A stretch of 64,000 nt of DNA from IMG/VR virus record IMGVR_UViG_3300037400_005412. One strand, written 5' to 3'. Below are positions 23,536 through 63,482 of this stretch, piece by piece. Under the pieces are notes generated by a model. The model was given only the letters and a program-made list of their open reading frames with translations. It was not told where the DNA came from and did not search any database. Each line of letters begins with the position of its first letter. The first letter of the stretch is position 1. Made by a program: the position numbers and the translations under genes. This stretch comes from an uncultured virus (IMG/VR IMGVR_UViG_3300037400_005412). Taxonomy: Duplodnaviria; Heunggongvirae; Uroviricota; Caudoviricetes.

Positions 23536-23585
23536 AATAAAAAAATGGTTATTGATTTCAAAAATCAATAACCATTTTTATTTAT
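23536..23585 (-). terminator. Intrinsic terminator after tape measure gene
   Basis: AAAAATGGTTATTGATTT / AAATCAATAACCATTTTT inverted repeat. Confidence 0.7.
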
Positions 23586-26500: not shown

Positions 26501-29500
26501 AAAATGAATTAATTTCTTATCAACATCCTAAATTTCCTATCCTAATTTTGGGAAATCTGTAATTAATTCATCAAAAATACTTTGAATAGATTCACTTACT
26601 TCAGTAATATTAATAAACTCACCTGTAAATTTATCAATATCTGCATGTAAAGAATTACTATTTAAAATGCTAGATAGAACTTTTAATCTATCTAAAGCTT
26701 CATCTGGATTATTAATTAAATACAAATAATCAGGAACAATTTCACTGCCATTTTCGCTAGCTTTGTCTTTACTTGTAGATGAATTTGTATTATCTGCCTC
26801 TTCAGCTAATGCTTCTTTTTCTTCTTCACTTAAATCAGCCAATTTTTCTAATCTTTCTTTACTATTTATATACTATAAGAAATCATCCTAATCTGGTAAA
26901 TACTAAGAATAATTAGCATAATATTTTTCATATAATCTAGCTACTAAAGATCTATATTCATCCATCGTATGAGTAATAATTTTTTCTTCAGGAGTGGCTT
27001 CTTCACCTTCTCTATCCCAAATAAATTTAAAGTCATTGTCAGTTTCTTCCCCAACAATAGCCTATGATTCACCAGTTTCTAAATTCTCTTTAAAAGTCTC
27101 AGCAAAAGACTAAGTTTCTTCATCCCAGAATTTTTGATGTAATTCTTCGACAGCCTATATATCCTATTCTAATTGACTTAAATCCATTGTAGGTACTAAT
27201 TTTAAATCATCACTACCAAAGAACTATTCACCGTTTAAATTTAAATTTAACATATCTTTTAATTCTTGCTCATAATCTTCAAGAATTTTAATATTAATAT
27301 CTTGTTCTTCTCCAATTAAACTAACAGCTTCTGCGGCCATATAAGCATCATCTTTAACTTTAGCCAAAGCATAATCTAATAACGTAAGTGCATTATTTTT
27401 AATAGCTACTTTATATTCAACTTCAACCTAAATAGCCTATAATCTTGTATCAAATAACTATTGCTGCATTTGCTCTAAAACTGTTAATTGCTATTGGTAA
27501 AGATTAAGAGTTTGAGTATAGAATTGAATATCTTTTAATTGTTCTTCTAATTTTGTTTGATAATCGCCTTCTTGAGCTTTATCTGTTACAGAAGTAATTT
27601 CATTAATATCGTCATTATTTTGTCCAGCTGCATTGAAATAATTACCAAAACCACCATAATTGCCAAATCCCATTATCGAACCAGACAATCCAAACGAACC
27701 AGACTTAGCAACGGGCATTGCTGCTCCGTAAATACCAGTACCTGGACTACCAGCAGCACCTACACTATATAATCCATGGACATAACTATAACCACCAGCA
27801 GTCATATTATACGCATCAAGCATAGCTTCGACGATCTAACGATAATTGGTAAGTACTCCTTTTTCATCAAACGCCGCGCTATCAAAAGCTAAAGGCATAT
27901 TTGGATATAAGTCATTCCAATCATTAACAAATTCTTTGACTGTATCTGCTACCTACTCTTTGTCAGTCTTAAGATAATTATTAATTTCTGATAAATATGC
28001 ACGCTACGCCGTCACCTATTGTTCTTGAACTGCAATTGTTTTTTCAATATTATCAATGCGAGATCTGCCCCAAGCTCTATCAGCTAATGTGGCAAAACGC
28101 TATAGTTCATTAGCTAAATCTTCAAGCTATTGAAGTATAGTATAATAACGTTCAAGTATATCGCGGTATTTAATCCAGTTCGCATCGAAACGGTGATTTT
28201 CTGCGGTTAATTCAGCTTCTGCAGTACCACCGCCTCCACCAGAGCTGCGGCCTCCACCACTAAAATCTCCACCGCTAGATGAAGATCCTAATTGAGTACC
28301 ATAACTATTATTACCCACATCAAAAGCGCTAGCATATCCAGGGATAAAATTATTAATACCAGAAGAGAAACCATTAATCATTTCTCTAATTTTTTTACTC
28401 CCTAAAATAGATGCAGTTTGCGCGGCAGTATATATTTTATCATTAGGTTCAACCCAAGCATATTCACGGCCATGCTTACCTAATAAATCCATATCCCCAT
28501 TTGGTTTTACATGAAGCTCTGGGCCAAGTTCGCCAGTTACAGCAATTGTTCCAGCCCCAGCCGCAAACTATGGAATTAAATTATTATTTTGACCAGAAGC
28601 TATTGGTACAATAGGAACTTCTTCTAAAGATTTTCCATCGTCTTCATCATAAGTAACTTCATAGTAATTCCCATCACTGCCTTGAAAATGGTCCCCAACT
28701 TCATATTCATCTCTGTGCTCATTAAAGTATTCCGAAATTCTATCCTTTATATCATTGTTATTTGAAGTATCAGAAGAGCTTGAAGAACCGGAACCTACTC
28801 CACTAAAATCACTTCCTCCTCCATTACCTCCATTAGAACCAGTAACAATTTCAGTTGTAGTTTGCGGCTCCCCTAAGTCAATTGAATTATTTGCTTCATC
28901 CGTAAGACTCCCATTTTCACCATTAGTTTCTTGAGAGGACTCTCCGGTTAAAGCACTGGCTTCTCCATTATCAATTGATTCCTATAAAATATCTCCTTGT
29001 TCAACCTATGTCTCTACGCCTTCAGCAATATCATGAACGTCTTTGGCTAATTTTTCAGTTTCTTTATCTTCATCATTTAATCCAGGTTGTTGCTATTCTT
29101 TTTCTTGTTGTAGTTCTTGTTCTCTCTCTCTCAATTCTTCAAGAGTATATGTTTCACCAGTTTTATCATCATGATATAAGAATGTATCTCCGGATGGATT
29201 CCATTGATTATGAAGCTCATTTATTTCTTCTTGAGTTAGAGCCTCTAAAGCCTATTCATGAGTTGTAGGCTACCCCTTGGATTCTGCTTGCTCAGGATTT
29301 TCAGGTTGAGTTTGTTCATGGGTCTAATTTGGTGACTACCCTGAAGTCTAATTCTATTCCTATTTATTTTGCTCATAATTACTTGTTTGAGCTTCTTTTT
29401 CCTATTGAAATAACTTTTCTCTATACTCATTAAACTCTTTTACAGCATCTTCAGCCGTATATGTTTTTCCATTAATTTTTCCAGCCAATTCTGCCGCTTT

Positions 29501-32500
29501 ATTTTCTAGTGCCTGATCAGTAAAAGCTTCTTCTCCAAATCTGTCCTAATCAATCATTTCATTATAGTAAGATTCTCCGCTCTTTCGTTCTCCCGTATCT
29601 TCATTATATGTAGATACATTATGCTAACGACCATAAGCATCAGTATATGTTTTTACTACATCTGTCCCACTATCGATCAAAGCTTTTATAGCTTTATCAG
29701 CATCTCCAGGAGTATATCCCTAATTTTCTGTTAAGAAAGTTTTTAATTCATCAAAATCATAGTATTTAGTACTATTGTCTAGACGATAATAACCACCACC
29801 TCCGGCTCCAGAATTCGCTTGATAATATTCCCTACTATAAGAAGAAACTACTGAATCAATTACATCTTTTACTACTTGTTGGTATCCAGCGTCATTCTGT
29901 GTCTCAGGAACTAATGTATCATAACTCTAATCAGCAAGGTGTTTTCCCATCTATGTTAAATTACTAAAACCTTCAGTGGCTTTTCCTATAATAACAGTCT
30001 TTTGGCTACTTAATGCTTGTGTAAAAGCATTTTTTAACCCATCTTCTGTTGTAAAATTAATAACTCCATCTTTTGTAATTCCATTTTGTTTTTCTTCATC
30101 AGTTAACTCTCTGAAAATTCCCTAAGCAGTATCATAAACTAAATTCTATAATATGCCAGAATCAAAAGCTCCAGATAAAGCATCAATTACATTACCATAA
30201 GCAAATCCTTCTTTATTAAATTCTTTTAAAGTAGTAGTTAATTGCTATGCGGCATTACCTACATCTAAAACATATCCAAAATCAGTAGAACCTAAATAAC
30301 CAACTATCTATTTAGAAAAAGTTTCAATTTGCTTATCATCATAAGTATATCCGTCTTTCCTTAAATTTTCAAATGCTTGCTAAAGATATCCATATAATCC
30401 AATACTAGTTACTTCATTTGTTAAACCATTAGTAGCAGCATAATCTGTATAGGCTTGTCCAAAATTAGAATTAAAACTAATATTTCCTGTTTTTGGATCA
30501 AAAACAATACCTTGATTGGCCATCTAATCTCCAAACATCTAGCCAAAATAGGCAAAAGCAGTTTCAATTCCTCCTCCGCCTTTGCCAAAATATTTTCCAG
30601 TTCCAGCGGTTGTAGACAGAAGATCATAAACAGGTCGCATCTATTCTTTTAATGTTTTATTAATGTCTTTTGTAACTGTACTGCCTGGAGAGCTAGACTC
30701 CATAATATTTCTAAATTGAGCAAACTATTCATCTGTTAAGAAACTTTGCATAGCATTAAAGAATGGAGTATCATGCCCCATATTTTCTTTAGTAGCTACA
30801 GCCCAAGACTTTCCAATATTTTGCCAATAATCATCAATCTCTCCATAAGAAGTTCCAAGATTTTGTTCTGCTAAAGTATCTAAACCAGCCTACTAAAAAT
30901 CAGAAACTCCTCCACCAATTTCTACTCCTTTAACAAAGCCATCAGTTAAATCTGCTGTTGTTATTTGCCCAGCGGCTAACATTTCACCAATATCAATAAC
31001 ACTTTGATAATGCTTAATTCCGTCTTCCGAAGAATCAAGATAAGATGCTAAAGTAGAATTTTTCTTAGCCATTTTTGCGATATCGCCAGTAGTAATATTA
31101 GTGTTATCTGCTAAAGCAGAAGCAATTGTATTCTATACCTAAGCAAAATCACTAGTGTCAAATGCAGTTCTAGCATAACCTCCATTATTAGCGATATCTT
31201 CTCTAATAGCCTATTCTAATTTTTGTAAAGCTGGAGTTAACTTCTCGTCTCCTAAAGATAATAATTTTTCTTGCTATTTTAATGAAGCTAATCCAGTAAT
31301 ACTATTTTCAAGGTTCAATTTATTTAAAGCATCAAAAAACTGCTAATTCCAATTACGAGGTGTTTTTGAATCATTATCATTATTTGAAGTTAAAGCATCA
31401 AAAACATATTTTCCAGTAACTTCACCAAATGTATTACCCATAGTGCTTGTATAAGCATTTAATAATTGTAACTAATTATTTGAAGCATTGCTTGTCTATA
31501 ATAGATCAGCAAAATTTTGACTATCTATTAAAGTATTTTGAGTAACTGTTTTTGCTAAATCGTCAACAGACTTAGCATATTCTTTCAAAGCCGTTGAAGT
31601 TAATAATTGATAACCTTGACTTTTATCAATCTAAACCTTATTGTTATTGTCTAAACTATTATAAAAGTTTTCGGCTCTTGCATTTATAAAGTCTTGTTCC
31701 GTAGCAGTTGGATTATTTTTTTTATATTCATCAAAGGCAGCTTTAAATTCTTGAGATCTGCTTCCTCCTATACCAAATAAACCACTTTGTTTTTTGCCGA
31801 AAGTGTCTTCAATGATGTCTCTTATTCCTTGTTTTTGTTCATCGGTTAATTCATCCCAACTAGCAATCGAATGCTAAGTTCTGCTAATGTTTTTAACTCC
31901 TTCTTCAATTAAACCATTAAAATCATCACGACTTAAATTTCCAGCATTAGCAAAACGAGATAATGTTGAATCAGAGATACCGCCTAAAAGATCTGTTTGC
32001 TCATCTATCTATGCCTATAATCCTTCTTTGTAAATCTAAGATCTAATAGCAACAGCAATGTCCATATCAGACATCTAAGAATTAGGACTCTCTCCACCAA
32101 ATAATTCTCTATACTAGTCCTCTAACCAATCTCTTTTTAAAGTATTCCCATCTTTATCAAATACTTGGCCAGTAGAAGTCCAATGTATGCCCAATAATTG
32201 ACCATTAGTATCACGAGATTGTAAAATATCTTGCCAAGAAGATAAATTTTCTTGGCCCTATTCACCAAATGTTAAACTTCTAGCTATTAATCGTTCTCTA
32301 TCAGAAACTTCTCCTTGGCTACTTAAATAAGTATTAATAGTAGCCTAATAGTCTGCTAAATTTCTATTCTACAAATTCTAAATTTGAGATTGTAATTGAC
32401 TTACTTTTGCTCGGCCTTCCTCACTTGTAATAGCAGCAATTTCTTCTTCAGTCAATAATTCACCATTACTAACTTTTTCAAAATATCCATCTGAAGCTCC

Positions 32501-35500
32501 AATTGAACTTAAAATTGTTGTAGTTAATTCAGATGATAATTTATTAATATCATTTATATTACTTAACTAACTTTTTGCACTATTAGTAACAGCGGCATCT
32601 ACTGCAGCTGTTTTAGCTCTTTCTTCTACTCTTTCATAAATAGCTTGTAGCTAAGTGCTTGAAAAAGTTGTTACTCCAGATTCATTAACGTTATAATCTA
32701 TTCCGGCTTGAAGCCCATAAGTTTCAATAATACTTCGAGCCTATTGATTAGCATCTAATAGCTAACTGGTATAAGCAGCCGTACCTTGCTGTAATGAAGA
32801 TAATTTATTTACACTAGCCTACTAACTTTTAATAACAGATTCAAAAGCATCTAATTTTTGTTTTTCTTCTTTTGCAGAAGCTTGACTTTGAATACTTAGT
32901 TCATTAGCTCTAGTTATCTTATTTTCTAATGACTATGCTGTAGTATTCTTAATTCCTTCATATATTGTAGCTGCTGTCGCGGCTAATGCGGCAACCGTTA
33001 CTCCTACACCAGCTCCAGTGAGCCCCTCAGCAGCCCCTAATCCAGTCCATCCAATTTTATTAAAACCACTACCAAGAGCTTTACTAATAGGTCCTGCGGT
33101 ATTATTAAATCCAGTAATAATGTTTTTATTACTAAATACATTAGAAAGTTGCCCAACAGCAAAAGCACTAGAACCTAAAGTAGTAACAAGCCCTCCCATT
33201 GTTGCTGTGCCATCTTTTACACTTTTTGCAAAATTATCAATACTACTTACAGCTGCTACGGTAGACTAAGCTGCCATTCCTAAGCCTATAGCAAATTGCC
33301 CAACTGACTGAGTGGCATAAGCTATAGTATCATTCAGATCTTGTTTATCTGTGGCATAATATGTAGAAGTAATTCCATTTTCTGTGTGCTTAAACCCCAA
33401 CAAGCCTTCAGCATTTCTTGCCTAATTAGGTCCAGAACGTAACCAAGATCCAATAGCAGAAGGCTAATTGCCTCCCATTGTAGGAATTAATTTTCCAGCA
33501 GCATCAACACGCTCACGAGTTTTCTCTCCAATTGTTGCTGCCTAATATTTATTCTATTCCATCTATTTAGCCTATGTTCCAAAACTTTTTACAGCCTCTC
33601 TAGCTTCAAGCTTAGTTTTTCCTTTATCACTTAGAGCATCTCTTCGAACATTACTCTTATCTTGTTGTTTTTGGTATTCTTTCCAAGCTTTTCCTTTTGC
33701 GCCGCCTTTAAAATCTTCCGATGTAAATGATAGTCTATCTTTTAAAATATCATCTATAGCTTTATCAAATATCTCATTGGCATTAAAAGATACCTTCCTT
33801 AATGCTCCAATCTATTCATCAGTTAATTCTCCTTCTGATGCTAAAATTTGTTGAATAGTTTGTCCATTATAGATAGTTCCACTAAAAGCTTTTTGCAATG
33901 CATCTTTTTGTGCTCCATTAGTTATATTATCAATATAACGCTATATATCTTTTGCTGTATCTTTCGCCAGTTGCTACTGTCTAGATCCACCTGTAGTCGA
34001 GATCTAATCATTAAGCTATTTTCCTAATTTATTAAAAGTACTTTCAAAAGTCTTATAAAAATCCCCAACTAATCCAGCTTCACTAGCAGATTTTTCAATA
34101 CTTTTTTGTATTGTTTCTCCAACTGAAAAATCAGTCTTTGAAATTCCATTAACAATCTATCTAAAATTTACAGCAGATTCATGGTAAGACTATGCTGAGT
34201 CTCTTAAATTATTTAAAGTTGAAGAAGCTTCAATTGCCTATGTCTAAGCTAATAAAAGCTAAGATTCAACTAATTCTCGTTGTGCCTAAGACGTAAAATT
34301 AGCATCTCCAAACTTTTGCCAGCTTTGTTTAAGACTATCTAAAATACTTCCATTAGCCTTATCAAATATATTATCTCTAGTGCTAATATCTTGACCAATT
34401 TCAAATAATGTGTCTATTTTAGACTAATTAGCAATTGCTCGTCCACTTGCGGTACTCATTCCGATATTATGAATTGCATTATCAATTCCATTAGCAATCT
34501 AATCCTAAAACATATAAGTAGCTAAAGCTCCTAGACTTGATACACTTCCAGAAGTTCCTAGAGTTTTTCCTACATTACCAATAGTATCTAAAACACTTGC
34601 TGTAAAATTATTTAACCCTTTAAAAAAGTCACTACTAATTAAAGTATCATAAATACCTTGAGCAGAGGTCTAAACTCTCTATTGAGCTGCCTGCCAAGAG
34701 TCAGCATAAATATCTGCCTATCTCTATAATGTACCATCAGAAGTCTAAGCTGTAATTAAATTTTCCTAAAAAGTCTCCCAATTCTCCATTAAAGACACTA
34801 AAGTAGTATAATTACGTACTCCGCCAACTGTCTAGGCTAAAGCAACCTATTGGGCCTAAGTTAAAGTTTGCCATCTTTGTCCCAACCCATCTAATATAGT
34901 GTCCATACTTTTTAATTTCCCATTAGCATCTAAAACACTAACGCCAACTTTCATTAAAGCTTCAGAATATTTATTTAAAGTTACACCATCTTCTAATGTT
35001 TTCCCAAGGTTTAATGATTCTAATCTAGAAAATAATGTTTTTAAACTAGTACCAACACTATCAGCAGACTATCTTGTCTGTGCTGTAACTGTAGCCATAG
35101 CGGTAGCCGCATAATCATAACTTAATCCGACAGTTTTTGAAATTGAAGCAAATTTTTCTAAACCTTTAGCAATTTCTCCAGAGCTAGAAGCAGTTGTTGC
35201 TCCTAATTTTGCCATTACATCTGCATATCTTTCAAGATTATCTACTCCATTGGAAAAATTGTTCCAAATTGATGTCATTTGTTGAGATACTTTAGTTGCG
35301 CTCTATCCACTCACTTGCGCCATTTTTAAAGTAGTTGCAGTACGTTCTGCCACTTCTTTATCTGATAAGCCCTATTGATAGTAAATTAAAGCAGCATTAG
35401 TATATTCTAAAGTTGAAGCATTTAAACTTTTAGCGGCTTCATTTGCTTGTCTAGCAAAATCCTACATGTATTCTGCACTATGTCCAGTAACTATCTAAAT

Positions 35501-36031
35501 ACTATTTAAAGATTTATCTAAATTCTAAGCATAATTAAAAGCTTTTGAAATTTCTCTTGTTATTCCATTAATCGCACCAGAGGCTACACTCCACCTAAAG
35601 GAATTCTATAAAAAAGTACCCATTTCTGATAACATCCCACTTGTCCTTTTTAAGGGCACTTCCGCCGAAGCAATTTGAGATGCCAATGAATCAAAAGCAC
35701 GCTGACCATCTGGACCTAAAGATGTTAAAGTATTTTTTATTTCTCCTATAGTTATACCACTTTGTTTTAATTCTGAATTAAATTTACCTAAATCAAAAGC
35801 ACCTGTCATCAAATCTTCAGATTTCTATAAGGCATTATTTAATTTTAAAGTAGTATTAGTCATTTTAACTAAATCATCTGCAGCTCCAATTTTAAATTGA
35901 GCTGTTTTTGATAAATTTAAAATTTGTGCCTACAAGTCTTTAGTCTAAGAAGTTATTTCTTTAAAATTATTTCTAATATTAATATCTGCAAAAAAACGAC
36001 TTGGCTAATTTAAATTTTTCCCACTAGGCAT
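23582..36031 (-). CDS. Tail tape measure protein, ~4149 aa (TAG=Gln)
   Basis: ATG 36031 and TAA 23582 are in frame with fragments at 35606, 35069, 32933, 28127, 27491, 26537, 23924. N-terminal TMP core (YADVMAKLGATTASSSGEIAKGLEKFAS), VTGELGPEL motif, C-terminal FDTGMYTGEW...LAWLH(TAG)KELVLNA; located after tail tube and chaperone. Confidence 0.85.
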
Positions 36032-39679: not shown

Positions 39680-40462
39680 TTAAATTTTAAATTTATTACG
39701 CTTTCTTAATAAGAATAATTCTGGATTATTCTTATACATATATGCTCCTAGGCGTAGTGTATCTTTTTTTCCAAAGCGTATTGTATAGGAGGAAGGGTCA
39801 TAACTTCCACCCTCAATTCCAGCTTTTTCTTTTAAAATAATTAATAACTAATTTAAAAATTTTTTACTACCACTGGTAAAAGCACTATTTACTCTACCAC
39901 ATTTTAATTCAGTGATACAGCCATCTCCATCAAAATATCCCCTTATAAAATCCGGTAAATATTCTTCTGGGATGTTGGGGAATTCAATAATCATACTTTT
40001 ATTTTCACACCCGCCTAAAGCCATCAAATCTTTATATATAACTACACAACTAAAATTTAAACGCGCCGCCTAGCGATCAACGTAATCATATAAAGGTCCT
40101 TCATACTGTAATTCTTCGGCAATGCGTTTTAAAATATATTTATCTTTATTGTGTAATGTTATATCAAACATCTTACCTCCATAAATACAACCATCTGCCC
40201 ACCATAAACCAAGCACATAAGCCATATTGCTTGACCAAGTTTTAAAATAATCCTAATTTATTCTATATTTTCTAGAGTTCTAAGACTATATCTTACTTTT
40301 TTCTTCTGGAGATAATTTTTTAATAATAAATTTATTATGATAACAATAACTATAAATAGTTTTTTTAGTATATTGTTTATCAAAATATTCATACCATTCT
40401 GGCAAGGTTCGATTCGCGCTCTCGGCACGAAGAATATCCTTATGTTCCTGTAATATTGGCAT
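39680..40462 (-). CDS. Free-standing LAGLIDADG homing endonuclease (TAG=Gln)
   Basis: Two motifs, MAYVLGLWWADGCI and DFIRGYFDGDGCI; ends LLRKRNKFKI-TAA; several in-frame TAG. Confidence 0.85.
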
Positions 40463-56184: not shown

Positions 56185-56439
56185 ATGCAACTTATTAATG
56201 AAAATACAAGTAGAAAAATTGATAGTTTAGGGCGTATTAGTATTCCAAAAGGTATGCGCGATAGGATGGGGATGCCGCAGGACACTGAATTAAATTTTTA
56301 TACTTTGATTACTGATAAAGGAGAATAGATGATTTGTTTGGCGCCGACCACTTTTAGAAGAGATAGATTTTATGTAGCGGCTGAAGTGCTTGATGAACTT
56401 GGATTAGATTTGCCAAAGGAGTTAAGAGCAAAGTTATAA
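56185..56439 (+). CDS. AbrB/MazE/SpoVT-family DNA-binding protein (one TAG)
   Basis: SRKIDSLGRISIPKGMRDRMGM motif; AAGGAG RBS; TAG at codon 48. Confidence 0.8.
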
Positions 56440-56792: not shown

Positions 56793-57049
56793 TGGTTCTT
56801 CTATTTTTTTGTAATTGGAAATATCGTAATTAGAAATTGAAAATTCATTTCGGAATTTTTTAGGTCATACTATATATATATTATAATAAATAAAAAAAAT
56901 AATCCGAAAACATACGCCCCTTGCCCGCGGTTCGCGCGCACAAAAAAATTTTTTTTCTTTGTGGGGGGGGGGGGGGGGGCACAGGTGCCGGCGATAAATA
57001 TATAAAAAAACCAGACTTAAAGTATAAAAAAATAAAATTATTTTTCTAG

Positions 57050-57261: not shown

Positions 57262-57620
57262 TCACTTTAATACACTAAAGCGCAAAAGTGCGACGAAAAT
57301 GTGTTCGCTGCTTTCGCGCGCGCAACGTCCCGAAACCCTGTTCGCTTCTTTGGGGAGGGGAGGGTAGGCCCACACTTTAGCACGTTAAAGCGTTATAGTA
57401 AGCGAGCACCTTTGTTAAAATTTTAACAAACTTTAGCGCATTAAAGCATTAAAGTGTTCCAAATGCGTGTTTGGCGCACTTTAACACGTTAAAGCGTTAC
57501 AGTAAGCGAACACCTTTGTTAAAAATTTAACAAACTTTAACACACTAAATCATTAAGGTGGACGAGCTCCTTTGTTAAAAATTTAACAAACTTTAGCGCA
57601 CTAAACCATCAAAGAGTTTG
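57262..57620. repeat. Cluster of alternating palindromic repeats
   Basis: CTTTA-N6-TAAAG-like units (about six) and TTTGTTAAAA(A/T)TTTAACAAA at 57411, 57515, 57571; ~104-bp tandem duplication 57373/57477. Confidence 0.85.
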
Positions 57621-57851
57621 TCAAACTTGTGTTTGCTTCTTTTGGTTACAAAATAATGACAAAAAATTTTTTAAAAAAACACTTGACAAACCAGGAGTCA
57701 AGTGTTATAATAGAAGTGGCACCTATTAAAAGGTAACAAAATAATGACAAAAAATTTCTAAAAAAAGTAGTTGACAAATAGCGCGTCCGGTGCTATAATA
57801 CAATCAGAAAGAGGGAAGGAAAACCCAACAAACCGGAAAGGAATTAGAAAA

Positions 57852-58007
57852 ATGAAGAATTGGAAAGTCTGGATGCTGGTTGCTGAAAATGGTGAAGTCC
57901 TCGCCCGCGGGCGCAAGCGTGATGTGATGCGGATCGCTTCTACTCGGTATGTTTATCAGCACATCTTTTCTGACAGCCTTTACCAGACTAGCGAGCCCCT
58001 CAACTGA
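57852..58007 (+). CDS. Small early protein, 51 aa
   Basis: MKNWKVWMLVAENG...; own promoter, GAAAGGA RBS and terminator 57994-58019. Confidence 0.75.
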   Translation: MKNWKVWMLVAENGEVLARGRKRDVMRIASTRYVYQHIFSDSLYQTSEPLN

Positions 58008-58065
58008 GGGGCTTTTTTCATCCCCGCAGGTAAGCGAGCACCTTTGTTAAAAATTTAACAAACAT

Positions 58066-58112
58066 GGGCGACCTTTCCCTCCACTCCCGGGTGGACAACC
58101 TCCTGTTGTGGT
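58066..58112 (-). ncRNA. Candidate small RNA, GGA-loop hairpin family (divergent copy)
   Basis: Minus promoter TTGACA(58144-58139)-17-TATAGT, then ACCACAAC-AGGAG-GTTGT-CCACCCGGGAGTGGAGGGAAAG; no ORF. Confidence 0.45.
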
Positions 58113-58268
58113 TATACTATACCATACAGCCCGCTTTTTGTCAAGCAAAAAAATACACAAATTAGATAAAGCCTTTTTGTATAACATTACCTATTGACAT
58201 TTCTCTTGTCCGGTGTTACAATACAATCAGAAAGAGAGAAGAACCCCTAATGTAAAGGAGAAAATAAA

Positions 58269-58469
58269 ATGAACCACATCATTTACACTGACCGATATTT
58301 TGAAAAAAATCTACAGCGTGTAGAAGTTACCTGCCGGAGCAAAGTCTACAAAACATACTATGCGCACAATCCCAGCGGTTTGAAACAGTACGCCCGCGTC
58401 TGGAATAATAGACTCGGCAAGATGATAGACATACGCCTTGACACTGATCTTGTGAAAGTTATTGATTGA
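58269..58469 (+). CDS. Small early protein, 66 aa
   Basis: ORF with promoter 58194 and AAAGGAG RBS. Confidence 0.75.
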   Translation: MNHIIYTDRYFEKNLQRVEVTCRSKVYKTYYAHNPSGLKQYARVWNNRLGKMIDIRLDTDLVKVID

Positions 58470-58617
58470 ATAGCGCGAACCAGCTAAAACCGGACGGCAT
58501 AAACCAGAAAAAACATCCGGGCTTAGCGCGAAAACCGTAGCTTTTTGATAAAAAAGAATTGACAAACAATCGGACGTGTGGTATAATACTCTTAGAAAGA
58601 GACAGGAGGGCAACCCC

Positions 58618-58779
58618 ATGAAATACTACAATGATGCCGATTTCTGCAGGCCCAGCACTGCAGGCGCGAAACTCTTAAAGGTGGAGCGCAACAAGCTCAA
58701 CCCATTGCCAGGCTTGACATTCGTATCAATCGGCTACTGGAAACTCGCAAGCGGCGAAGTGATTGGCATTGTATTCTAA
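58618..58779 (+). CDS. Small early protein, 53 aa
   Basis: MKYYNDADFCRP...; promoter 58559, AGGAGG RBS. Confidence 0.7.
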   Translation: MKYYNDADFCRPSTAGAKLLKVERNKLNPLPGLTFVSIGYWKLASGEVIGIVF

Positions 58780-59053
58780 AAGCTGACAGCCTTTTCTAAT
58801 ACGCAATTCACCGCGCTTCCCGCGAAGGGCCCGAAGCGCAGGTTACAATATAGTGACAATTTTTTACGACAAATTACAGCTTTTTCAACCAGATTGCCGC
58901 ATCCCGAAAGTGTAACAGATTAATGACAGAACAGTACCAAAAGAAAAACATAATTTTTTTTGAAAAAATGCTTGACATTTACCCGGGCTTGTGGTATTAT
59001 AATACCAGAAAGAGGGAAGGAAAACCCAATAAACCAGAAAGGAAAGAAAGACA

Positions 59054-59167
59054 ATGATGCAGTATGGTTACTATGAAGCACACGAGGCAGAGTGGGAAGC
59101 TTGGAACGAGTACGTTGAATGGTTGAACTTTGAGGCCGACATGGCAACGAATCCCTACGATGAATAA
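59054..59167 (+). CDS. Acidic 37-aa peptide (paralog of 61891-61998)
   Basis: MMQYGYYEAHEAEWEAWNEYVEWLNFEADMATNPYDE; promoter 58972, RBS, hairpin over stop. Confidence 0.75.
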   Translation: MMQYGYYEAHEAEWEAWNEYVEWLNFEADMATNPYDE

Positions 59168-59257
59168 TCGTAGGGATTCCAAAAAAAACTATTGACAAAC
59201 CGGACAGAGTATGCTATAATAAATCCAGAAGTTAAGAAAGAAAGGAAGTAAAAAAAA

Positions 59258-59443
59258 ATGAAAGACTTTAACATTAAAATCACTATTATTTCTGCGCTTA
59301 TTATTCTCAGCCTTTTGACTCTTGGAATTATCGCTTGCCTCACTTGCGATGCGCCGACTTGGGAAAAGGTCGCTGGAATAATTCTCCCGGTTGTCCCTGT
59401 TGGCCTTGAAAGCTTTCTGTTTTATACATACATCTGGGATTAA
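59258..59443 (+). CDS. Small membrane protein, two predicted TM helices
   Basis: ITIISALIILSLLTLGIIACL and VAGIILPVVPVGLESFLFY; promoter 59192, terminator follows. Confidence 0.75.
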   Translation: MKDFNIKITIISALIILSLLTLGIIACLTCDAPTWEKVAGIILPVVPVGLESFLFYTYIWD

Positions 59444-59515
59444 GGACTTAAAAAAGTCCTTTTTCTTTTTTTATTTTAGGGCTTGACAAATCGCCCGGGC
59501 AATGCTATAATGTAA

Positions 59516-59561
59516 TCACAGGTTGAGGGAAACCGCACTCGGGCAGGAGAGGGGAGAGACT
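59516..59561 (+). ncRNA. Candidate small RNA, GGA-loop hairpin family
   Basis: Promoter 59483, then ATCACA-GGTT-GAGGGA-AACC-GCACTCGGGCAGGAGAGGGGAGAGAC; no ORF. Confidence 0.55.
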
Positions 59562-59672
59562 ATCCAAAAGGTAACAAAAGAAAAACAAAAAATTTCTAAA
59601 AATAACTCTTGACATTCGTCCGGACTTGTGGTATTATAATACCAGAAAGAGAAAAGAAAGGAAGTAAAAAAA

Positions 59673-60008
59673 ATGAAAAAGACAATAAAGTATGTGGTAG
59701 TAAGACTTACTGTTCCCGAGGATGTCAAGAATTATCATGGCTATTACATTCATACTTATGCTTATAAATCTGGAAATCATGATTCTGTCGTTGAGTATTG
59801 CCACAAGGTAAAAAGCCAAAAGGGTTATAAAAATGGCACAAGCTATAAATGGTATGTAATGACTGAACATCAGGCACTTGAAGAATCTATCAGGCTTCAC
59901 AAATGGCAGGAAGAAAAATTAAACAAGGATTTAGAAAGGCGCTTTCCCATTCGTTATTGTGAACAAACCGCAAGAGAAGAACTTGCCGAAATGATGAGTG
60001 CAAGATAA
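59673..60008 (+). CDS. Early protein, 111 aa
   Basis: ORF with promoter 59609, RBS, and bidirectional terminator 60008-60037. Confidence 0.75.
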   Translation: MKKTIKYVVVRLTVPEDVKNYHGYYIHTYAYKSGNHDSVVEYCHKVKSQKGYKNGTSYKWYVMTEHQALEESIRLHKWQEEKLNKDLERRFPIRYCEQTAREELAEMMSAR

Positions 60009-60075
60009 AAAAGGTTGAGCAATCAACCTTTTTTTTAATGCAAAGAACCGAACACTCTCGCAGGCGGTCCGAAAA

Positions 60076-60104
60076 ATTATACCATACCAGTAGCAAAAAG
60101 TCAA
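60076..60104 (-). promoter_or_regulatory. Antisense sigma-A promoter with no ORF
   Basis: TTGACT-17-TATAAT with TG extension, ~40 nt from the bidirectional terminator. Confidence 0.6.
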
Positions 60105-60223
60105 GAAGAAATTTCGCACAAAATAGCATAAAACTGAACGTCCCGATTTGTGCACTTTGACTATTGACACCGGGCTATTTATTTGCTATAATGAAGCCAC
60201 AAAAGGAAAAGGAGATAAAGAAA

Positions 60224-60532
60224 ATGATCAACATTAGAAGCATCCTAAAACTGGCTGAAAATGACGGCCTGACTCTTAAAGCTGGTAAGCCCATCACTTA
60301 CAAGAGTGGTTGGCAGGTTGCCACCGAGGGCGTAGAGTGCCACACCGCAAGAGAAGCGATCAATGCGGTTAAGGCTTACAGCGGGAACTGTGGCGTGTGG
60401 TTTGCTGGCGGTATCTACTACATTGACAAAAGCCACCGCGTGAACACTAAACGCGAAGCACTGGAAATTGGCAAGACACACAATCAGATTTCTGTGTTGG
60501 GCTGGCGTAAAATGGCTTTAGCGTATTGCTAA
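60224..60532 (+). CDS. Early protein, 102 aa
   Basis: MINIRSILKL...GVWFAGGIYYIDKS...EALEIGKTHNQISVLGW; promoter 60164, AAGGAG RBS. Confidence 0.8.
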   Translation: MINIRSILKLAENDGLTLKAGKPITYKSGWQVATEGVECHTAREAINAVKAYSGNCGVWFAGGIYYIDKSHRVNTKREALEIGKTHNQISVLGWRKMALAYC

Positions 60533-60635
60533 AGCCATTAAAATTTTTTTTGAAAAATTGAAAAAAATGCTTGACATTTTGCCCGGCTTGATATAATATA
60601 CAATCAGAAAGAGAAAAGAAAAGGAGATAATTAAA

Positions 60636-60827
60636 ATGTACATGATTCTTACTGCTGATACCGAAGAGACCATTGCTTCCACCAGATTTGAGGATGTAGC
60701 TAAAGTAATTGCTGATTCACTGCCTATCAAATGCGTTGTTCGGTATGCTGACATGGGCACTACAGTCTATTACAAAGCACCCGGTGCTAACTTCTTCTCT
60801 GCTAACGAAAAGCAGGAAGTGGCCTAA
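60636..60827 (+). CDS. Small early protein, 63 aa
   Basis: Promoter 60571, AAGGAG RBS, terminator with long T-run. Confidence 0.75.
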   Translation: MYMILTADTEETIASTRFEDVAKVIADSLPIKCVVRYADMGTTVYYKAPGANFFSANEKQEVA

Positions 60828-61123
60828 AAAGCCACTTCTTTTTTTTTTTTTTTTTTTTTTGGTATTGACATTTGCGTGCGCATGTGCTATAATAGAATTG
60901 GTGCGTTTCTTTCGTCCAGGGGCTGTGGCGCAGGTTACAATATAGTGACAAATTTTTGCGAGATGTTACAAGAAATTACCCGGACTTGCGGCGTCCTAAA
61001 ACTGGTTACAAAATAATTACAAATCAGTGACAAAAAGTTTTTTTAATTTTTTTGAAAAAATGCTTGACAAATGCGCCCGGCTGTGGTATATTATAATCAC
61101 AAAAGGAAAGGAGATAAAAAGAA

Positions 61124-61345
61124 ATGAAAAAGATGTTTACTTATGACGTGGGTGGTTGGTTGTTCTGGGATACCGAGGCTTTCGGGAATGGCTGGAAAGC
61201 CGCAAAGGAAAAGGCCACCGCTCTCCACAGCGCGATCTATCGCACGGTCTATAATGGAGAGACTGAGCGCCGAGAGGTTTACTTTAAGGCTGGATGTTTC
61301 AATGATGTTAAGTATGCCACCCCTGACAGCGTGATGATTTTCTAA
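61124..61345 (+). CDS. Small early protein, 73 aa
   Basis: Promoter 61064, AAGGAG RBS, hairpin over stop. Confidence 0.75.
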   Translation: MKKMFTYDVGGWLFWDTEAFGNGWKAAKEKATALHSAIYRTVYNGETERREVYFKAGCFNDVKYATPDSVMIF

Positions 61346-61446
61346 GGGATTAAAAAAATCCCTTAGAAAATTTAAAAAATGCTTGACAAACCGGTCAACT
61401 TGTGATATTATAATACCAGAAAGAGAAAGAAAGGAAGTAAAAAAAA

Positions 61447-61635
61447 ATGACTTACACAATTAGCAAGAATTTCAATGGAACTTACTCCATCCACCTTGGC
61501 GCCGACCTCTTTTACTCTTGGATTGATGAAGCGCCCACCTATGAAAAGGCAATAGAACTTGCGAGAACATACGCCGGAGAAAACGGCACAGTCCTCTATA
61601 AAGAAGACCTTTTCAAATCCGCCATTGAAATCTAA
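61447..61635 (+). CDS. Small early protein, 62 aa
   Basis: Promoter 61383, RBS, GCAA-loop terminator. Confidence 0.75.
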   Translation: MTYTISKNFNGTYSIHLGADLFYSWIDEAPTYEKAIELARTYAGENGTVLYKEDLFKSAIEI

Positions 61636-61705
61636 AAAGAGAGCCGCAAGGCTCTTTTTTTATAAAAAGTGCTTGACAAAACGCCCGGGCTATGATACAA
61701 TACAA

Positions 61706-61750
61706 TCACAGGCGGAGGGACGCCCCACGCGGGAAGTCGAGGGGAGAGAC
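61706..61750 (+). ncRNA. Candidate small RNA, GGA-loop hairpin family
   Basis: Promoter 61673, then ATCACA-GGCG-GAGGGA-CGCC-CCACGCGGGAAGTCGAGGGGAGAGAC; no ORF with a start codon. Confidence 0.55.
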
Positions 61751-61890
61751 TGACTTAATAGTTACAAAATGGTAACAAAAAAGTTTTTTCAAAAAAATCA
61801 AAAAAAAGCTTGACAAAATGCCCGGGCTGTGCTATACTACAATCAGAAAGAGGGAAGGAAAACCCCAATAAACCAGAAAGGATGAATAAA

Positions 61891-61998
61891 ATGGAGTTTT
61901 ACAGTATGGAGCAGTTCGAGATCATGGGCGACCTGATGGAAGAATATCAGGAGTGGCTGGACTTTGAAGAGGACATGAAGTCCAATCCTTGGGGCTAA
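61891..61998 (+). CDS. Acidic 35-aa peptide (paralog of 59054-59167)
   Basis: MEFYSMEQFEIMGDLMEEYQEWLDFEEDMKSNPWG; promoter 61810, same leader as paralog. Confidence 0.75.
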   Translation: MEFYSMEQFEIMGDLMEEYQEWLDFEEDMKSNPWG

Positions 61999-62092
61999 AA
62001 AAGCCCCAAGGAAATTAAAAAAGTGCTTGACAAGTAAAACAAAGTATGATATAATAAAGGCATAAAAGGAAAAGAAAAGGAGAATTAAAAAA

Positions 62093-62377
62093 ATGAGTTA
62101 CTTTATGGGAAATGGCCGCGCCGATACTTGCCGCCACAGCGATGAAGCCTACAAGGGCAAGGCGGTTGAAATGATGATTGACGTGCTGGAAGCCCGTGAT
62201 GGTTTTGAACTTCGCAAGGCAAGCGACAGCACCGGCTCGGCGGCAAAGTTCCGCATTTTCTGGGATGGCGAGTGCATCAGCACCGTCTACAATGAAAAGG
62301 AAGCGCGGGCGCTGTTCAATGACTTTGCCCCAGCCCCCAAGCGCAAGGCTGGACGCCCCAAGAAGAATGCCGCATAA
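62093..62377 (+). CDS. Early protein, 94 aa, with C-terminal AT-hook-like motif
   Basis: Ends PKRKAGRPKKNAA; promoter 62027, AAGGAG RBS, terminator. Confidence 0.75.
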   Translation: MSYFMGNGRADTCRHSDEAYKGKAVEMMIDVLEARDGFELRKASDSTGSAAKFRIFWDGECISTVYNEKEARALFNDFAPAPKRKAGRPKKNAA

Positions 62378-62635
62378 GTTCCAAAAGAGAAAGAGTTAAA
62401 AAACTCTTTCTCTTTTCTTTTGTGGGACGTGCGCCGCCCGGGTAAGCGAATCCTTTTAGCTGGAGTTAGCGCCGACTTACCCGACAGGCCCCGAGCTTTA
62501 ACACAGTAAAGTGGTGAAGAATTTTGAGGCGATTTGCTTGTTAAAAACTTAACGATATTTTTTCCGAAAAAGGGCTTGACAAATGCCTCCGGGTGTGGTA
62601 TAGTATAATCACAAAAGGAAAGGAGATAAAGAAAA

Positions 62636-62794
62636 ATGAAACGTGAACAGTATTACAAGAACAAGAGAACAGGCGAGCACACCGAAAGCCATAAACAAGC
62701 CATGGAATGGTATCGGGCAAAGGATGAGATCGAAGTCTGGTATTATTCCGAAGTGTGCGGCGAATGGCTGTGCGGGGTTGAGTGGGTTTGGTAA
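62636..62794 (+). CDS. Small early protein, 52 aa, Trp-rich
   Basis: MKREQYYKNKRTGE...GEWLCGVEWVW; promoter 62576, AAGGAG RBS, terminator over stop. Confidence 0.75.
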   Translation: MKREQYYKNKRTGEHTESHKQAMEWYRAKDEIEVWYYSEVCGEWLCGVEWVW

Positions 62795-62857
62795 AAATCC
62801 ACTCAACTTTTTTTGAAAAAGGGCTTGACAAATCGCCCGGGCTGTGATACTATACAA

Positions 62858-62903
62858 TCACAGGCGGAGGGACGCCCCACGCGGGGAGCCGAGGGGGGAG
62901 AGC
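62858..62903 (+). ncRNA. Candidate small RNA, GGA-loop hairpin family
   Basis: Promoter 62825, then ATCACA-GGCG-GAGGGA-CGCC-CCACGCGGGGAGCCGAGGGGGGAGAG. Confidence 0.55.
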
Positions 62904-63011
62904 GCGCTAAAAGTTACAAAAGAATGACAAAAAATTTTTTTGAAAAGTGCTTGACAAGTCCGGACATGTATGCTATAATGTAGTCACAAAAGAGAAAAGG
63001 AGATAAAAAAA

Positions 63012-63188
63012 ATGACTTACGAAGAAATGTACGATCTGCTGGCCGATGTTCTCGGAATTGATGAAAATGCCCTTGATCTGGCTTTTGCCATTGGCGGATG
63101 TAACGAAGAAACCGCCGAAAGAATTTTGTTCTACTACACTGGCTGGCATTCCTTTGAGGGCTGGCTGGGCGAACAGGAAGAGGACTGA
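63012..63188 (+). CDS. Acidic early protein, 58 aa
   Basis: MTYEEMYDLLADVLGIDENALDLAF...GEQEED; promoter 62951, RBS, terminator. Confidence 0.75.
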   Translation: MTYEEMYDLLADVLGIDENALDLAFAIGGCNEETAERILFYYTGWHSFEGWLGEQEED

Positions 63189-63290
63189 AAGAGTCCTCTT
63201 TTGCCCGGGCAAAAGTTACAAAAGAAAGACATTGACAAATAAAATAAAGTATGGTATTATAATACCAGAAAGAACAAAGGAGATAAAAAA

Positions 63291-63482
63291 ATGAAAAACT
63301 ATAATAACATGAGCTGTGCTGAACTGCGGCGGCAACTGAACCAGATCGACAATGACCTGCGGAACTTCCCCACTATGAGCCAAATTGAAAAAAACCGCCT
63401 GACCTATGAGCGGATGAAAGTCAACGGCATTCTGCGCCACAAGATCACAGAAATCCTTGATGAATGTGATGAAAAGGCTTGA
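63291..63482 (+). CDS. Small helical early protein, 63 aa
   Basis: Promoter 63232, AAGGAG RBS; stop overlaps the next -35 box. Confidence 0.75.
   Translation: MKNYNNMSCAELRRQLNQIDNDLRNFPTMSQIEKNRLTYERMKVNGILRHKITEILDECDEKA

Follow-up and report, generated by a model that had tools for sequence, protein, structure and literature searches.

A family of small hairpin–pseudoknot RNAs predicted behind strong early promoters in stop-codon-recoded phages

Four cassettes in the DNA of an uncultured virus (IMG/VR record IMGVR_UViG_3300037400_005412), analysed here as one stretch of 64,000 nt (the window), are predicted from covariation among homologues to encode members of an uncatalogued structured-RNA family. 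Each cassette consists of a near-consensus sigma-70-type promoter followed by a G-rich element of about 48 nt, without an ORF; three lie on the plus strand and one, divergent, on the minus strand (Table 1). A preliminary description of this DNA had proposed a multi-copy, promoter-driven non-coding RNA family with a covarying GGA-loop hairpin. The family, the promoters and the hairpin are borne out by the homologues, which in addition reveal a pseudoknot that had been overlooked. The source is a gut or rumen phage with a recoded stop codon.

The four cassettes were found where they had been described, with promoters matching the consensus hexamers at 10–12 of 12 positions, and the hairpins quoted for them (GGCG/CGCC, GGTT/AACC and ACAAC-AGGAG-GTTGT) are exact. 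In copy 1 the -10 hexamer ends 6 nt ahead of the A in ACAGG, and the first A of the divergent copy lies in the same register; transcription by the host's sigma-A-type RNA polymerase is expected to begin at this A. A script scan detected no SD-preceded ORF of at least 25 codons starting within 130 nt of any of the four promoters; under the same criteria, each neighbouring promoter in the window has an SD-preceded ORF. The motif CACAGG-NN-GAGGGA-NN-CC-N-CAC-N-CGGG occurs three times in the window and was matched in none of 100 shuffles. When the window was scored with a covariance model built from homologues, the best match after the four cores reached 9.1 bits. The minus-strand core reads, in order, hairpin ACAAC-AGGAG-GTTGT, CCAC-C-CGGG, a 1-nt deletion and GGAGGGAAAGG; it retains the pair N:N' (as C:G), has lost X:Y, and runs into a TTGTTAAA..TTTAACAA palindrome and the terminator of a convergent gene. 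Between the plus-strand cores and the promoter that follows each of them in the window, no terminator-like site was found; the preliminary description had noted three copies without a clear terminator. Each plus-strand core is followed by a GTWACAAAA-N3-DDACAAA module, which has eight sites in the window, all on the plus strand, against 0.51 expected. The module also precedes the core-less promoters at 57683 and 57771, and probably belongs to the upstream region of the downstream promoter, outside the RNA fold. Further ORF-less promoters in the window, absent from the preliminary description, lie at 57683 (+), 60865 (+) and 60104 (-).

Table 1. Positions of the cassette features in the window
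Feature	Position	Strand	Remarks
Promoter, copy 1	59483..59511	+	TTGACA-17-TATAAT, TG extended -10; 12/12 consensus-hexamer match
Core RNA, copy 1	59518..59564	+	predicted +1 at A59518 (RNA start ~59518); 70.7 bits
P1, copy 1	59521-59524 : 59531-59534	+	loop GAGGGA 59525-59530
Pseudoknot pairs, copy 1	59535:59544, 59536:59543, 59538:59549, 59539:59548	+	
GTWACAAAA-N3-DDACAAA module	59571..59589	+	between core 1 and next promoter (59609)
Promoter, copy 2	61673..61701	+	11/12 hexamer match, TG
Core RNA, copy 2	61708..61754	+	predicted RNA start ~61708; P1 GGCG/CGCC; 70.8 bits
GTWACAAAA-N3-DDACAAA module	61761..61779	+	after core 2; next promoter 61810
Promoter, copy 3	62825..62853	+	10/12 hexamer match, TG
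Core RNA, copy 3	62860..62906	+	predicted RNA start ~62860; P1 GGCG/CGCC, longer G run; 53.8 bits
GTWACAAAA-N3-DDACAAA module	62913..62931	+	after core 3; next promoter 62951
Promoter, divergent copy	58116..58144	-	11/12, TG
Core RNA, divergent copy	58066..58110	-	predicted RNA start ~58109; 23.3 bits, E 1.8e-6

The first 45 nt or so of the RNA are predicted to form a 4-bp hairpin (P1), situated 3 nt from the 5' end and closed by a near-invariant GARGGA loop. Directly 3' of P1 is a very small pseudoknot, in which X:Y and a C:G pair cross another C:G pair and N:N', followed by a conserved GAGGGG(A/G) tract that is single-stranded in the predicted fold. Covariation with few exceptions or none was seen at four base pairs, two of them in the GARGGA-loop hairpin and two that cross each other and so define the pseudoknot. 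Among 101 distinct 90-nt homologues, the four column pairs with the highest mutual information (0.92–1.43) are all Watson–Crick, whereas the fifth (0.72) is non-complementary. Each of the two inner P1 pairs is paired in 80/80, N:N' in 80/80 with three pair types, and X:Y in 77/80, also with three types. Pairing holds in 99.4% of cells across 64 distinct 48-mers, the C:A of window copy 2 being one of only three unpaired cells at X:Y, and the covariation score is 0.545 versus 0.156 in shuffles, none of 500 of which reached it; slid controls scored at most 0.063. The three variable helices were found in 16 different combinations, indicating that the pairs change independently, and a C-to-U change in column 20 keeps the pairing with G27. 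By covariation the pseudoknot stems are only 2 bp each, with their other members invariant and their extent uncertain. As the search patterns fixed 19–20 positions, conservation of these positions in the large set arises by construction, and its independent check is confined to 15 IMG/VR copies, in which the loop is GARGGA throughout (15/15) under patterns leaving the loop or the region in the middle unconstrained. Every variant of the hairpin loop (GAGGGA, GAAGGA and AGGAG) keeps a GGA. Among the outcomes that the preliminary description had named beforehand as speaking against an RNA family are absence of covariation in more homologues and a match to a known Rfam family or DNA operator. The covariation was strengthened rather than erased, and the pairs stay complementary while their sequence changes, unlike an operator read by a protein.

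Pattern scans yielded about 100 distinct homologues, all on phage or metagenome contigs; of the 32 pattern matches in 185,579 prokaryote genomes, none was the element. Rfam 15 gave no match in the whole window at gathering thresholds, and at E ≤ 10 over 57900–63300 none of 16 weak matches fell on the cores, consistent with the earlier view that this is not a described family. The element is confined to a narrow lineage of ~240-kb phages of Firmicutes in which TAG is recoded to Gln. It is present in 3–7 diverged copies per genome, with seven in one complete 239,565-bp genome (G001), all within 10 kb. Among loci from relatives it was detected in 1 of 80; it is missing from all four near-complete related genomes and from phAss-1, and the relatives carry instead other ORF-less RNAs composed of a promoter, a 5' hairpin and a terminator. 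Given this distribution, the element is apparently a dispensable, fast-evolving accessory. The element could be among the 8,495 candidate structured RNAs catalogued on the basis of predictions in IMG/VR 3 (PMC10690425), a study that relied, as here, on that data source and on covariation within intergenic regions of phages. The four IMG/VR contig identifiers are absent from the supplement files searched, which comprised those other than the alignment archives, and promoters are not mentioned in the main text of that article (PMC10690425).

Analysis of 102 genomic contexts revealed a promoter with at least a 10/12 match in every one. In 100 of them the A of ACAGG lies exactly 6 nt past the -10, and in these the element starts at the predicted +1. 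The next unit downstream possesses its own full promoter in 97 contexts. Two of the five without one (L018 and L043) face convergent genes, as does the minus-strand copy in the window; these three copies thus have no gene to lead. Copies differ in their tails. In type II (17/102, about one in six), a U run, the U7 tract, comes right after the core; the 66 copies of type I, to which the three plus-strand copies of the window belong, lack a terminator and are followed by a co-oriented promoter and gene 90–120 nt downstream. The copies, each with its own promoter, are dispersed 1–3 kb apart within, rather than at the head of, a long early array of short promoter–gene–terminator units with which the element is co-oriented, and the sole minus copy points at a minus-strand late cluster with very few consensus promoters. 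Related phages carry the element upstream of different genes; between the window and G001, the MINIR.. and MTYEEMY.. genes have a core upstream in one phage and not in the other. By its placement the element is apparently an autonomous, shuffling cassette with its own predicted full-strength promoter, including an UP element. Operator-like palindromes and iteron-like repeats adjoin many copies. The 16 small early proteins of the window matched no Pfam or PHROG family, and G001 encodes no homologue of CsrA, NusG or sigma-70 region 2. A protein-coding micro-ORF was rejected: a possible start codon, TTG at +6, is confined to those members with TT in the stem (48 of 96), the length of the G run varies and shifts the frame, and the variation is Watson–Crick and not codon-like.

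The reading we favour, tentatively and at somewhat less than even chances, is an abundant early RNA whose exposed GGA-rich loops would capture a factor and keep it sequestered. Produced in large amounts right after infection, the RNA would act on its own and not for the gene behind it. Its invariant purine loops, comprising the hairpin-loop GGA, another GGA about 25 nt further on and the conserved loops of the pseudoknot, would serve as a high-affinity site that sequesters or recruits a protein. Candidates are a phage protein and, on the host side, an RNA-binding regulator (e.g., CsrA); a nuclease or a protein of defence would also be conceivable. The targets that the preliminary description had put forward for an early RNA decoy, CsrA-like proteins, ribosomes or a defence RNase or toxin, are likewise putative. 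In type II copies the U7 tract after the core would yield a discrete RNA of about 50 nt; from the other copies the transcript probably continues into the next cassette or is trimmed. The predicted hairpin-loop GGA of every variant fits CsrA-type recognition, but a CsrA model gives no function to the pseudoknot part, which is conserved to the same degree, and G001 encodes no CsrA. The lack of homologues of CsrA, NusG or sigma-70 region 2 in G001 and of family matches for the 16 small early proteins counts against the favoured reading. Like the CsrB/RsmZ-type sRNAs that act as sponges of CsrA/RsmA, the element combines a GGA in a hairpin loop with a second, single-stranded GGA about 25 nt away, here in GAGGGGA(A/G), with high expression (here predicted) and with many binding sites in total, here via gene copies. 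The several A(N)GGA motifs, some in hairpin loops, that mark such sponges are present, but number only two or three per RNA; the element further differs in its extra conserved pseudoknot, its phage origin and the usual lack of a terminator of its own. The CsrA antagonist known from Firmicutes, FliW, is a protein.

A doubtful but more far-reaching proposal is an "RNA sponge" cassette, a tiny hairpin–pseudoknot aptamer that the strongest host promoters would express in the first minutes from several diverged copies, soaking up a host factor. Its target might be a global RNA-binding regulator of the CsrA kind, a nuclease or toxin involved in defence, or perhaps a molecule of immune signalling, and sister phages would use different ORF-less RNAs in the same arms race. 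With phi29 pRNA, other ORF-less early phage RNAs and pseudo-ToxI decoys, the element shares phage origin, lack of coding capacity, strong early promoters and pseudoknot-type pairings. It is much smaller than pRNA, is neither a tandem array of 36-nt repeats nor located beside a toxin gene, and showed no similarity in the Rfam scan. Type III antitoxins are tandem repeats of about 34–45 nt beside the gene of an endoribonuclease toxin, an arrangement that pseudo-ToxI decoys mimic; this candidate was rejected, given dispersed copies with their own promoters and no toxin-like gene found beside them.

It is unlikely that the element is a cis-acting module of processive antitermination, like the HK022 put RNA or a nut site, whose nascent 5' fold would stay on its own polymerase, alone or with a phage protein, and carry it past the many terminators of the small early cassettes into long delayed-early transcripts. 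Such a role would suit an ORF-less element with conserved purine loops and several copies per genome that always sits at the very start of the transcript, co-oriented with the array. The terminator-like site directly after the type II core resembles a promoter–signal–terminator layout, and the minus copy is aimed at the promoter-poor late cluster. HK022 put and lambda nut are likewise structured, ORF-less, placed right behind early promoters in more than one copy and upstream of terminators, which also exist downstream of the element. Here, however, downstream genes retain their own consensus promoters (97/102), making read-through unnecessary for expression; the host is a Firmicute, the 3–7 copies are interspersed and do not head the array, close relatives with the same array architecture lack the element, and G001 has no NusG-family antiterminator-like protein. 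To our knowledge, put and nut have no apparent similarity to the element in sequence or fold, and its fold is presumably unlike the two put-type stem-loops, which counts against antitermination. Nut RNAs are characterised by a boxB hairpin with a 5-bp stem and a GNRA-like pentaloop, by boxA and by a cognate N-like or NusG-like protein; a nut-type RNA was rejected, as the element has a 4-bp stem with a hexaloop and no boxA-like element by eye, and G001 no NusG-family gene.

A role as a cis-acting 5' mRNA stabiliser appears quite improbable to us. The 5'-terminal hairpin and the SD-like polypurine tracts would block 5'-end-dependent decay (RNase J1/RNase Y entry), and the read-through mRNA of the next gene would outlive that from the gene's own promoter. 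Stabilisers in Firmicutes have a structure a few nucleotides from the 5' end and an SD-like polypurine tract without a start codon (PMC3997798); the references of that article include work on a polypurine 5' stabiliser (Hue et al. 1995). The element, with three unpaired nucleotides before P1 at the predicted +1 and two purine tracts, resembles the known 5' stem-loops, Stab-SD of cryIIIA and the SP82 polypurine in this respect, and ordinary mRNA leaders of the window phage also begin with AGAAAGAGGGAAGG. The last-named stabiliser reportedly stems from an early RNA of phage SP82; if this attribution is right, the early phage setting is common to both. In contrast, the invariant loop and the covarying pseudoknot exceed what a simple stabiliser needs, and the purine tracts, one of them within a 6-nt loop, match the phage's own SD (AAGGAG) poorly. 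The element is not tied to one mRNA, an mRNA body would follow only upon read-through, and copies with a U run (17/102) or facing convergent genes, some without any downstream gene, would stabilise nothing. The 66 type I copies, without a terminator, count against the favoured reading and would be compatible with a role in cis. The element may also be a long leader of the next gene, as the preliminary description had considered for three copies; in 97/102 contexts that next unit has a full promoter of its own.

Very unlikely are functions at the level of DNA or transcription, namely R-loop or origin priming from the G-rich non-template strand beside an A/T-rich stretch, a hairpin promoter of a phage polymerase, or a functionless remnant of duplicated promoter cassettes in decay. 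The G clusters directly downstream of a strong promoter and ahead of an A/T-rich region, along with the adjoining palindromes and repeats, would agree with such functions, but changes that preserve complementarity, at a constant distance from the transcription start, point to selection on a folded single strand, seven origins within 10 kb are implausible, and an essential part in replication is hard to reconcile with relatives that lack the element. Of very low probability, finally, is a small-molecule aptamer, either a riboswitch-like attenuator, in which GGC(U) before the type II U run would pair with the P1 3' strand and P1 and the pseudoknot would compete with the terminator helix, or an RNA that soaks up a metabolite or a signalling nucleotide: the compact hairpin–pseudoknot with many invariant unpaired purines and an alternative AAGCC/GGCUU helix ahead of the type II U run (RNAfold) stand against the lack of any Rfam riboswitch match even at E ≤ 10, the 85/102 copies without a U run, and the intervening promoter, which leaves no gene directly controlled.

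In summary, few non-coding RNAs of phages, and almost none from large uncultured gut or rumen phages that recode stop codons, are known to us. The element described here is shorter than 50 nt and shows unusually clean covariation that extends to a pseudoknot, together with a defined (predicted) 5' end, maximal promoters and several copies per genome; its small size, clean fold and defined 5' end make it cheap to synthesise and probe, and suited to pull-downs. Its binding partner is probably something that the phage must handle in the first minutes of infection. If the RNA is a decoy, it would reveal a host regulator or defence targeted by these phages, and the sponge proposal, if true, would add an RNA equivalent to the anti-defence sponges made of protein, in a lineage of Firmicutes phages with a recoded stop codon. 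If it is put-like, we know of no earlier example of RNA-only antitermination in a Firmicutes phage. On comparative grounds, promoter cassettes that look "empty" in early regions of this kind are putative functional units, not annotation gaps.

A scan behind four promoters of the window found no open reading frame preceded by a Shine–Dalgarno (SD) sequence. Each is followed instead by the element of the preliminary description, a G-rich core of about 48 nt. No terminator-like site separates any plus-strand core from its next promoter. The window contains three matches to the core motif, whereas 100 shuffles gave none. Searching the window with a covariance model built from homologues gave 70.8, 70.7 and 53.8 bits for the plus-strand copies and 23.3 bits (E 1.8e-6) for the minus-strand copy, the best remaining match scoring 9.1 bits.

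Comparison of 80 distinct 60-nt cores revealed that the four column pairs of highest mutual information are all Watson–Crick (0.92–1.43, versus 0.72 for the best non-complementary pair). The covariation first seen in P1, the 4-bp hairpin with a GARGGA loop near the RNA 5′ end, held with the added homologues, both inner pairs (C:G/T:A and T:A/G:C) being paired in 80 of 80. Two further pairs lie 3′ of P1: N:N′ is paired in all 80 cores (T:A 43, C:G 24, G:C 13) and X:Y in 77 (G:C 37, C:G 25, A:T 14, G:T 1), with three mismatches. Given that X:Y and N:N′ cross, the core is predicted to fold into a hairpin with a minimal pseudoknot directly behind it, to whose crossing pairs RNAalifold is blind. 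The minus-strand copy retains the GGA loop and N:N′ and has lost X:Y. In a model on 64 distinct 48-mers, P1 (5–8/15–18), a stem at 19–20/27–28 and a crossing stem at 22–23/32–33 are 99.4% paired. The covariation score was 0.545, as against 0.156 in shuffles, none of 500 of which reached 0.545, and at most 0.063 with the partners slid. The three variable helices occur in 16 combinations; thus, the changes are not a single inherited block.

Other folds were rejected. In the nested second stem proposed by RNAalifold (22–24/35–37), pair 23:36 is broken in 12 of 64 sequences and shows no double changes. In a longer helix (17–23/32–38), 19:36 is paired in only 24 of 64, versus 61 of 64 for 19:28; its remaining pairs are invariant, so covariation is silent on them. 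The tail might form a third hairpin (AAGG..CCUU), but its register is inconsistent and its energies lie between 0 and −5 kcal/mol, and a coding reading of the core fails for want of a conserved ORF. The search patterns fixed 19–20 positions, and IMG/VR scans with the loop or the middle left free served as a check. Leaving the loop free gave 35 matches, of which 13 were true members; leaving the middle free gave 23, of which 15 were true members, those 13 included. Among these 15 distinct copies the loop is GAGGGA in 13 and GAAGGA in two, and the middle is canonical in 13; one copy carries C24→G and one C20→U, the latter keeping a wobble pair with G27.

The promoter matches at 10 or more of 12 positions in each of the 102 distinct contexts, and at all 12 in 58; its spacer is of a conserved CCCGGG type, and it is accompanied by UP-like tracts rich in A and T. 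Exactly 6 nt separate the end of the −10 box from the A of ACAGG in 100 contexts, and from this register the RNA is predicted to start with ACA and to enter P1 at +4. The RNA fold is under selection at a fixed 5′ position, the cassette (core plus promoter) is autonomous, and high copy number goes with high promoter strength. A further full co-oriented promoter follows in 97 contexts, its −35 box at +90 to +298 (modes 90–93, 100–104 and 118–122). Within the stretch examined, five loci have none (L018, L043, L054, L090 and L110); the cores of L018 and L043 face convergent genes, as does the window's minus-strand copy, which is outside the 102.

The tails fall into three types, with three exceptions. 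Type I (66 of 102, the window's three included) carries a GTWACAAAA-N3-DDACAAA module, type II (17) GGC and then a run of six to eight U, and type III (16) one to eight GTTAGA-N4-TCTAAC-like palindrome units, which look operator-like. Eight sites of this module lie in the window, where 0.5 would be expected, and all eight are plus-strand. It consists of direct half-repeats about 11 bp apart, invariably just upstream of a promoter's UP-like tract. Since it is also found upstream of core-less promoters, it probably belongs to the downstream promoter, as a putative protein-binding module. Another palindrome, TTGTTAAA-NN-TTTAACAA, is present in four exact copies, each part of a longer repeat (..GTAAGCGAGCACCT..); they are located in the non-coding DNA that separates the late from the early region, and behind the minus-strand core. 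Palindromes resembling them come after the cores of L043 and L090, and their sequences look like operators or origin/terminus repeats. The cores of L054 and L110 precede long GTTARAT..ATCTAAC-type palindrome arrays (up to eight or more units, about 20-bp period), resembling iteron-like or centromere-like sequences.

Features of the window by position (strand where assigned)
Feature	Position	Strand	Remark
Late genes	1-56079	-	
Tape-measure gene	23582-36031		4149 aa; 146 in-frame TAGs
LAGLIDADG homing-endonuclease-like gene (PF14528)	39680-40462	-	within structural module
Early-type array	about 56.1 kb to 64000	+	standard code
First early gene	56185-56436	+	TAG=Q; one in-frame TAG
Run of 17 G	56963-56979		non-coding junction region
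TTGTTAAA-NN-TTTAACAA, exact copies	57412-57429, 57516-57533, 57572-57589, 58044-58061		
TTGTTAAA-NN-TTTAACAA, variant	62538-62555		
GTWACAAAA-N3-DDACAAA sites	57645-57663, 57733-57751, 59571-59589, 60934-60952, 61005-61034, 61761-61779, 62913-62931	+	
Core promoters	59483, 61673, 62825	+	
Core promoter	58144	-	
Cores	59518, 61708, 62860	+	
Divergent core	58066-58110	-	
ORF-less unit	57683-57760	+	promoter 57683; short GGCACC.. RNA
ORF-less unit	58795-58940	+	promoter-less stretch at 58800
ORF-less unit	60865-61040	+	promoter 60865
ORF-less unit	60104-60005	-	promoter 60104; ~60-nt hairpin RNA ending in bidirectional terminator, about 60005-60030
Promoters with common leader	57771, 58972, 61810, 63745		leader begins about 29 nt downstream
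Run of about 22 T	60839-60860		after terminator of gene 60636-60827

Among the other ORF-less units of the window, the unit of promoter 60865 and the promoter-less stretch have in common a hairpin rich in GC, behind which come AGGTTACAATATAGTGACAA and further GTNACA repeats. Four promoters share an mRNA leader of about 45 nt, AGAAAGAGGGAAGGAAAACCC..AAACCAGAAAGGA, which has a possible GGG/CCC hairpin with AAGGA in its loop, a second AAGGA at the SD, and, like the core RNA, GAGGGA near its 5′ end.

The window belongs to a large tailed phage, whose late genes are open only with TAG read as Gln. ORF scans yielded 23 ORFs of at least 200 aa with this code, including proteins of 4149 (a tape-measure protein, PF10145), 2777 and >2089 aa, and 14 ORFs of at least 150 aa with table 11; table 4 brought the late-gene ORFs no improvement. 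The early array, with a GC content of 40% versus about 30% in the late region, holds about 25 near-consensus TTGACA-17-TG-n-TATAAT promoters, each with a gene of 35–111 codons. A tRNA scan of the window found no tRNA genes, and no GenBank phage, near or distant, matched it at the DNA level. In GenBank, a late protein has its closest relatives in the 'code 15' phage phAss-1 (47.5% identity) and, at about 40%, in Enterococcus phages; the named hosts are all Bacillota, and those of phAss-1 are predicted in PMC10607447 to be Clostridia. Such hosts are consistent with the sigma-A-type promoters and AAGGAG ribosome-binding sites of the window.

Pattern scans found 12 copies on four IMG/VR contigs and 117 stretches from metagenome contigs. 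Eleven loci without ACAGG, complementary stem and promoter were excluded (L024, L061, L069, L077, L079, L081, L088, L092, L111, L137 and L139); the homologue set comprises 101 distinct 90-nt sequences, the window's three included. Among prokaryotes (one genome each of 185,579 species), 32 pattern matches contained no member, each lacking the same three features and being attributed to chance. No match to Rfam was found either, and the element belongs to no Rfam family, in line with the preliminary description, which had recognised none. Our literature search found no published description of it. A published catalogue lists 8,495 candidate structured RNAs predicted from IMG/VR (PMC10690425); those of its tables that were compared do not name the four IMG/VR contigs, and the element may be listed there anonymously.

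Seven copies are present in G001, a complete related phage genome of 239,565 bp, where they span 115.5–124.9 kb and all lie on the early strand. The early arrays of G001 and the window are syntenic, but the cores precede different genes in each. The early/late-junction protein has 231 relatives in IMG/VR, and the covariance model found the element in one of the best 80 loci among them, in none of four related genomes of 98–100% completeness and not in phAss-1. Relatives without the core have other ORF-less cassettes, in which the promoter is followed by a 5′ hairpin rich in GC and by an intrinsic terminator. Being near-absent among relatives, which have these cassettes instead, the element is a lineage-restricted, replaceable accessory. 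The relatives' cassettes (L183, L193, L194, L198, L203–L206, L227 and others) form a different family of about 70 nt, with a consensus promoter, a 7–9-bp GC hairpin whose loop is like TGGGTCGTG, an A-rich spacer and the terminator; TTTGTCAATAGGCAAA-like motifs often follow.

As for possible partners, none of the 16 early window proteins matched Pfam or PHROG, apart from a sub-cut-off likeness of the first early gene to the AbrB/MazE fold (PF04014, E 4.5e-5, just under the Pfam cut-off; PHROG 4681, 'antitoxin'). Its product, putatively DNA-binding, may regulate the repeats described above, or it may mimic an antitoxin. In G001, homologues of CsrA, NusG and sigma-70 region 2 are all absent.

Our leading, still tentative, reading is that the element acts as a self-sufficient early RNA whose invariant purine loops would bind a factor and so sequester or recruit it. 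The core has no fixed association with any gene, and the next gene is independent of its promoter, having its own in 97 of 102 contexts. A U run closes one copy in six, and a few copies lack a gene downstream. At the corresponding places, sister phages carry small-RNA genes that are unrelated to it. A point against this reading is that most copies lack a terminator. That the cores are cis-acting, put-like antitermination modules seems unlikely, and a role as 5′ stabilisers of the kind described in Firmicutes (PMC3997798) is slightly more doubtful. We consider a DNA-level element or remnant, and likewise an aptamer or attenuator, improbable. The preliminary description had proposed an early decoy for CsrA-like proteins, ribosomes or a defence RNase/toxin. 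CsrA as the target would be consistent with a GGA that never varies in the loop and with the distance to the second GGA, but leaves the pseudoknot and the conserved CAC/CGGG residues unexplained.
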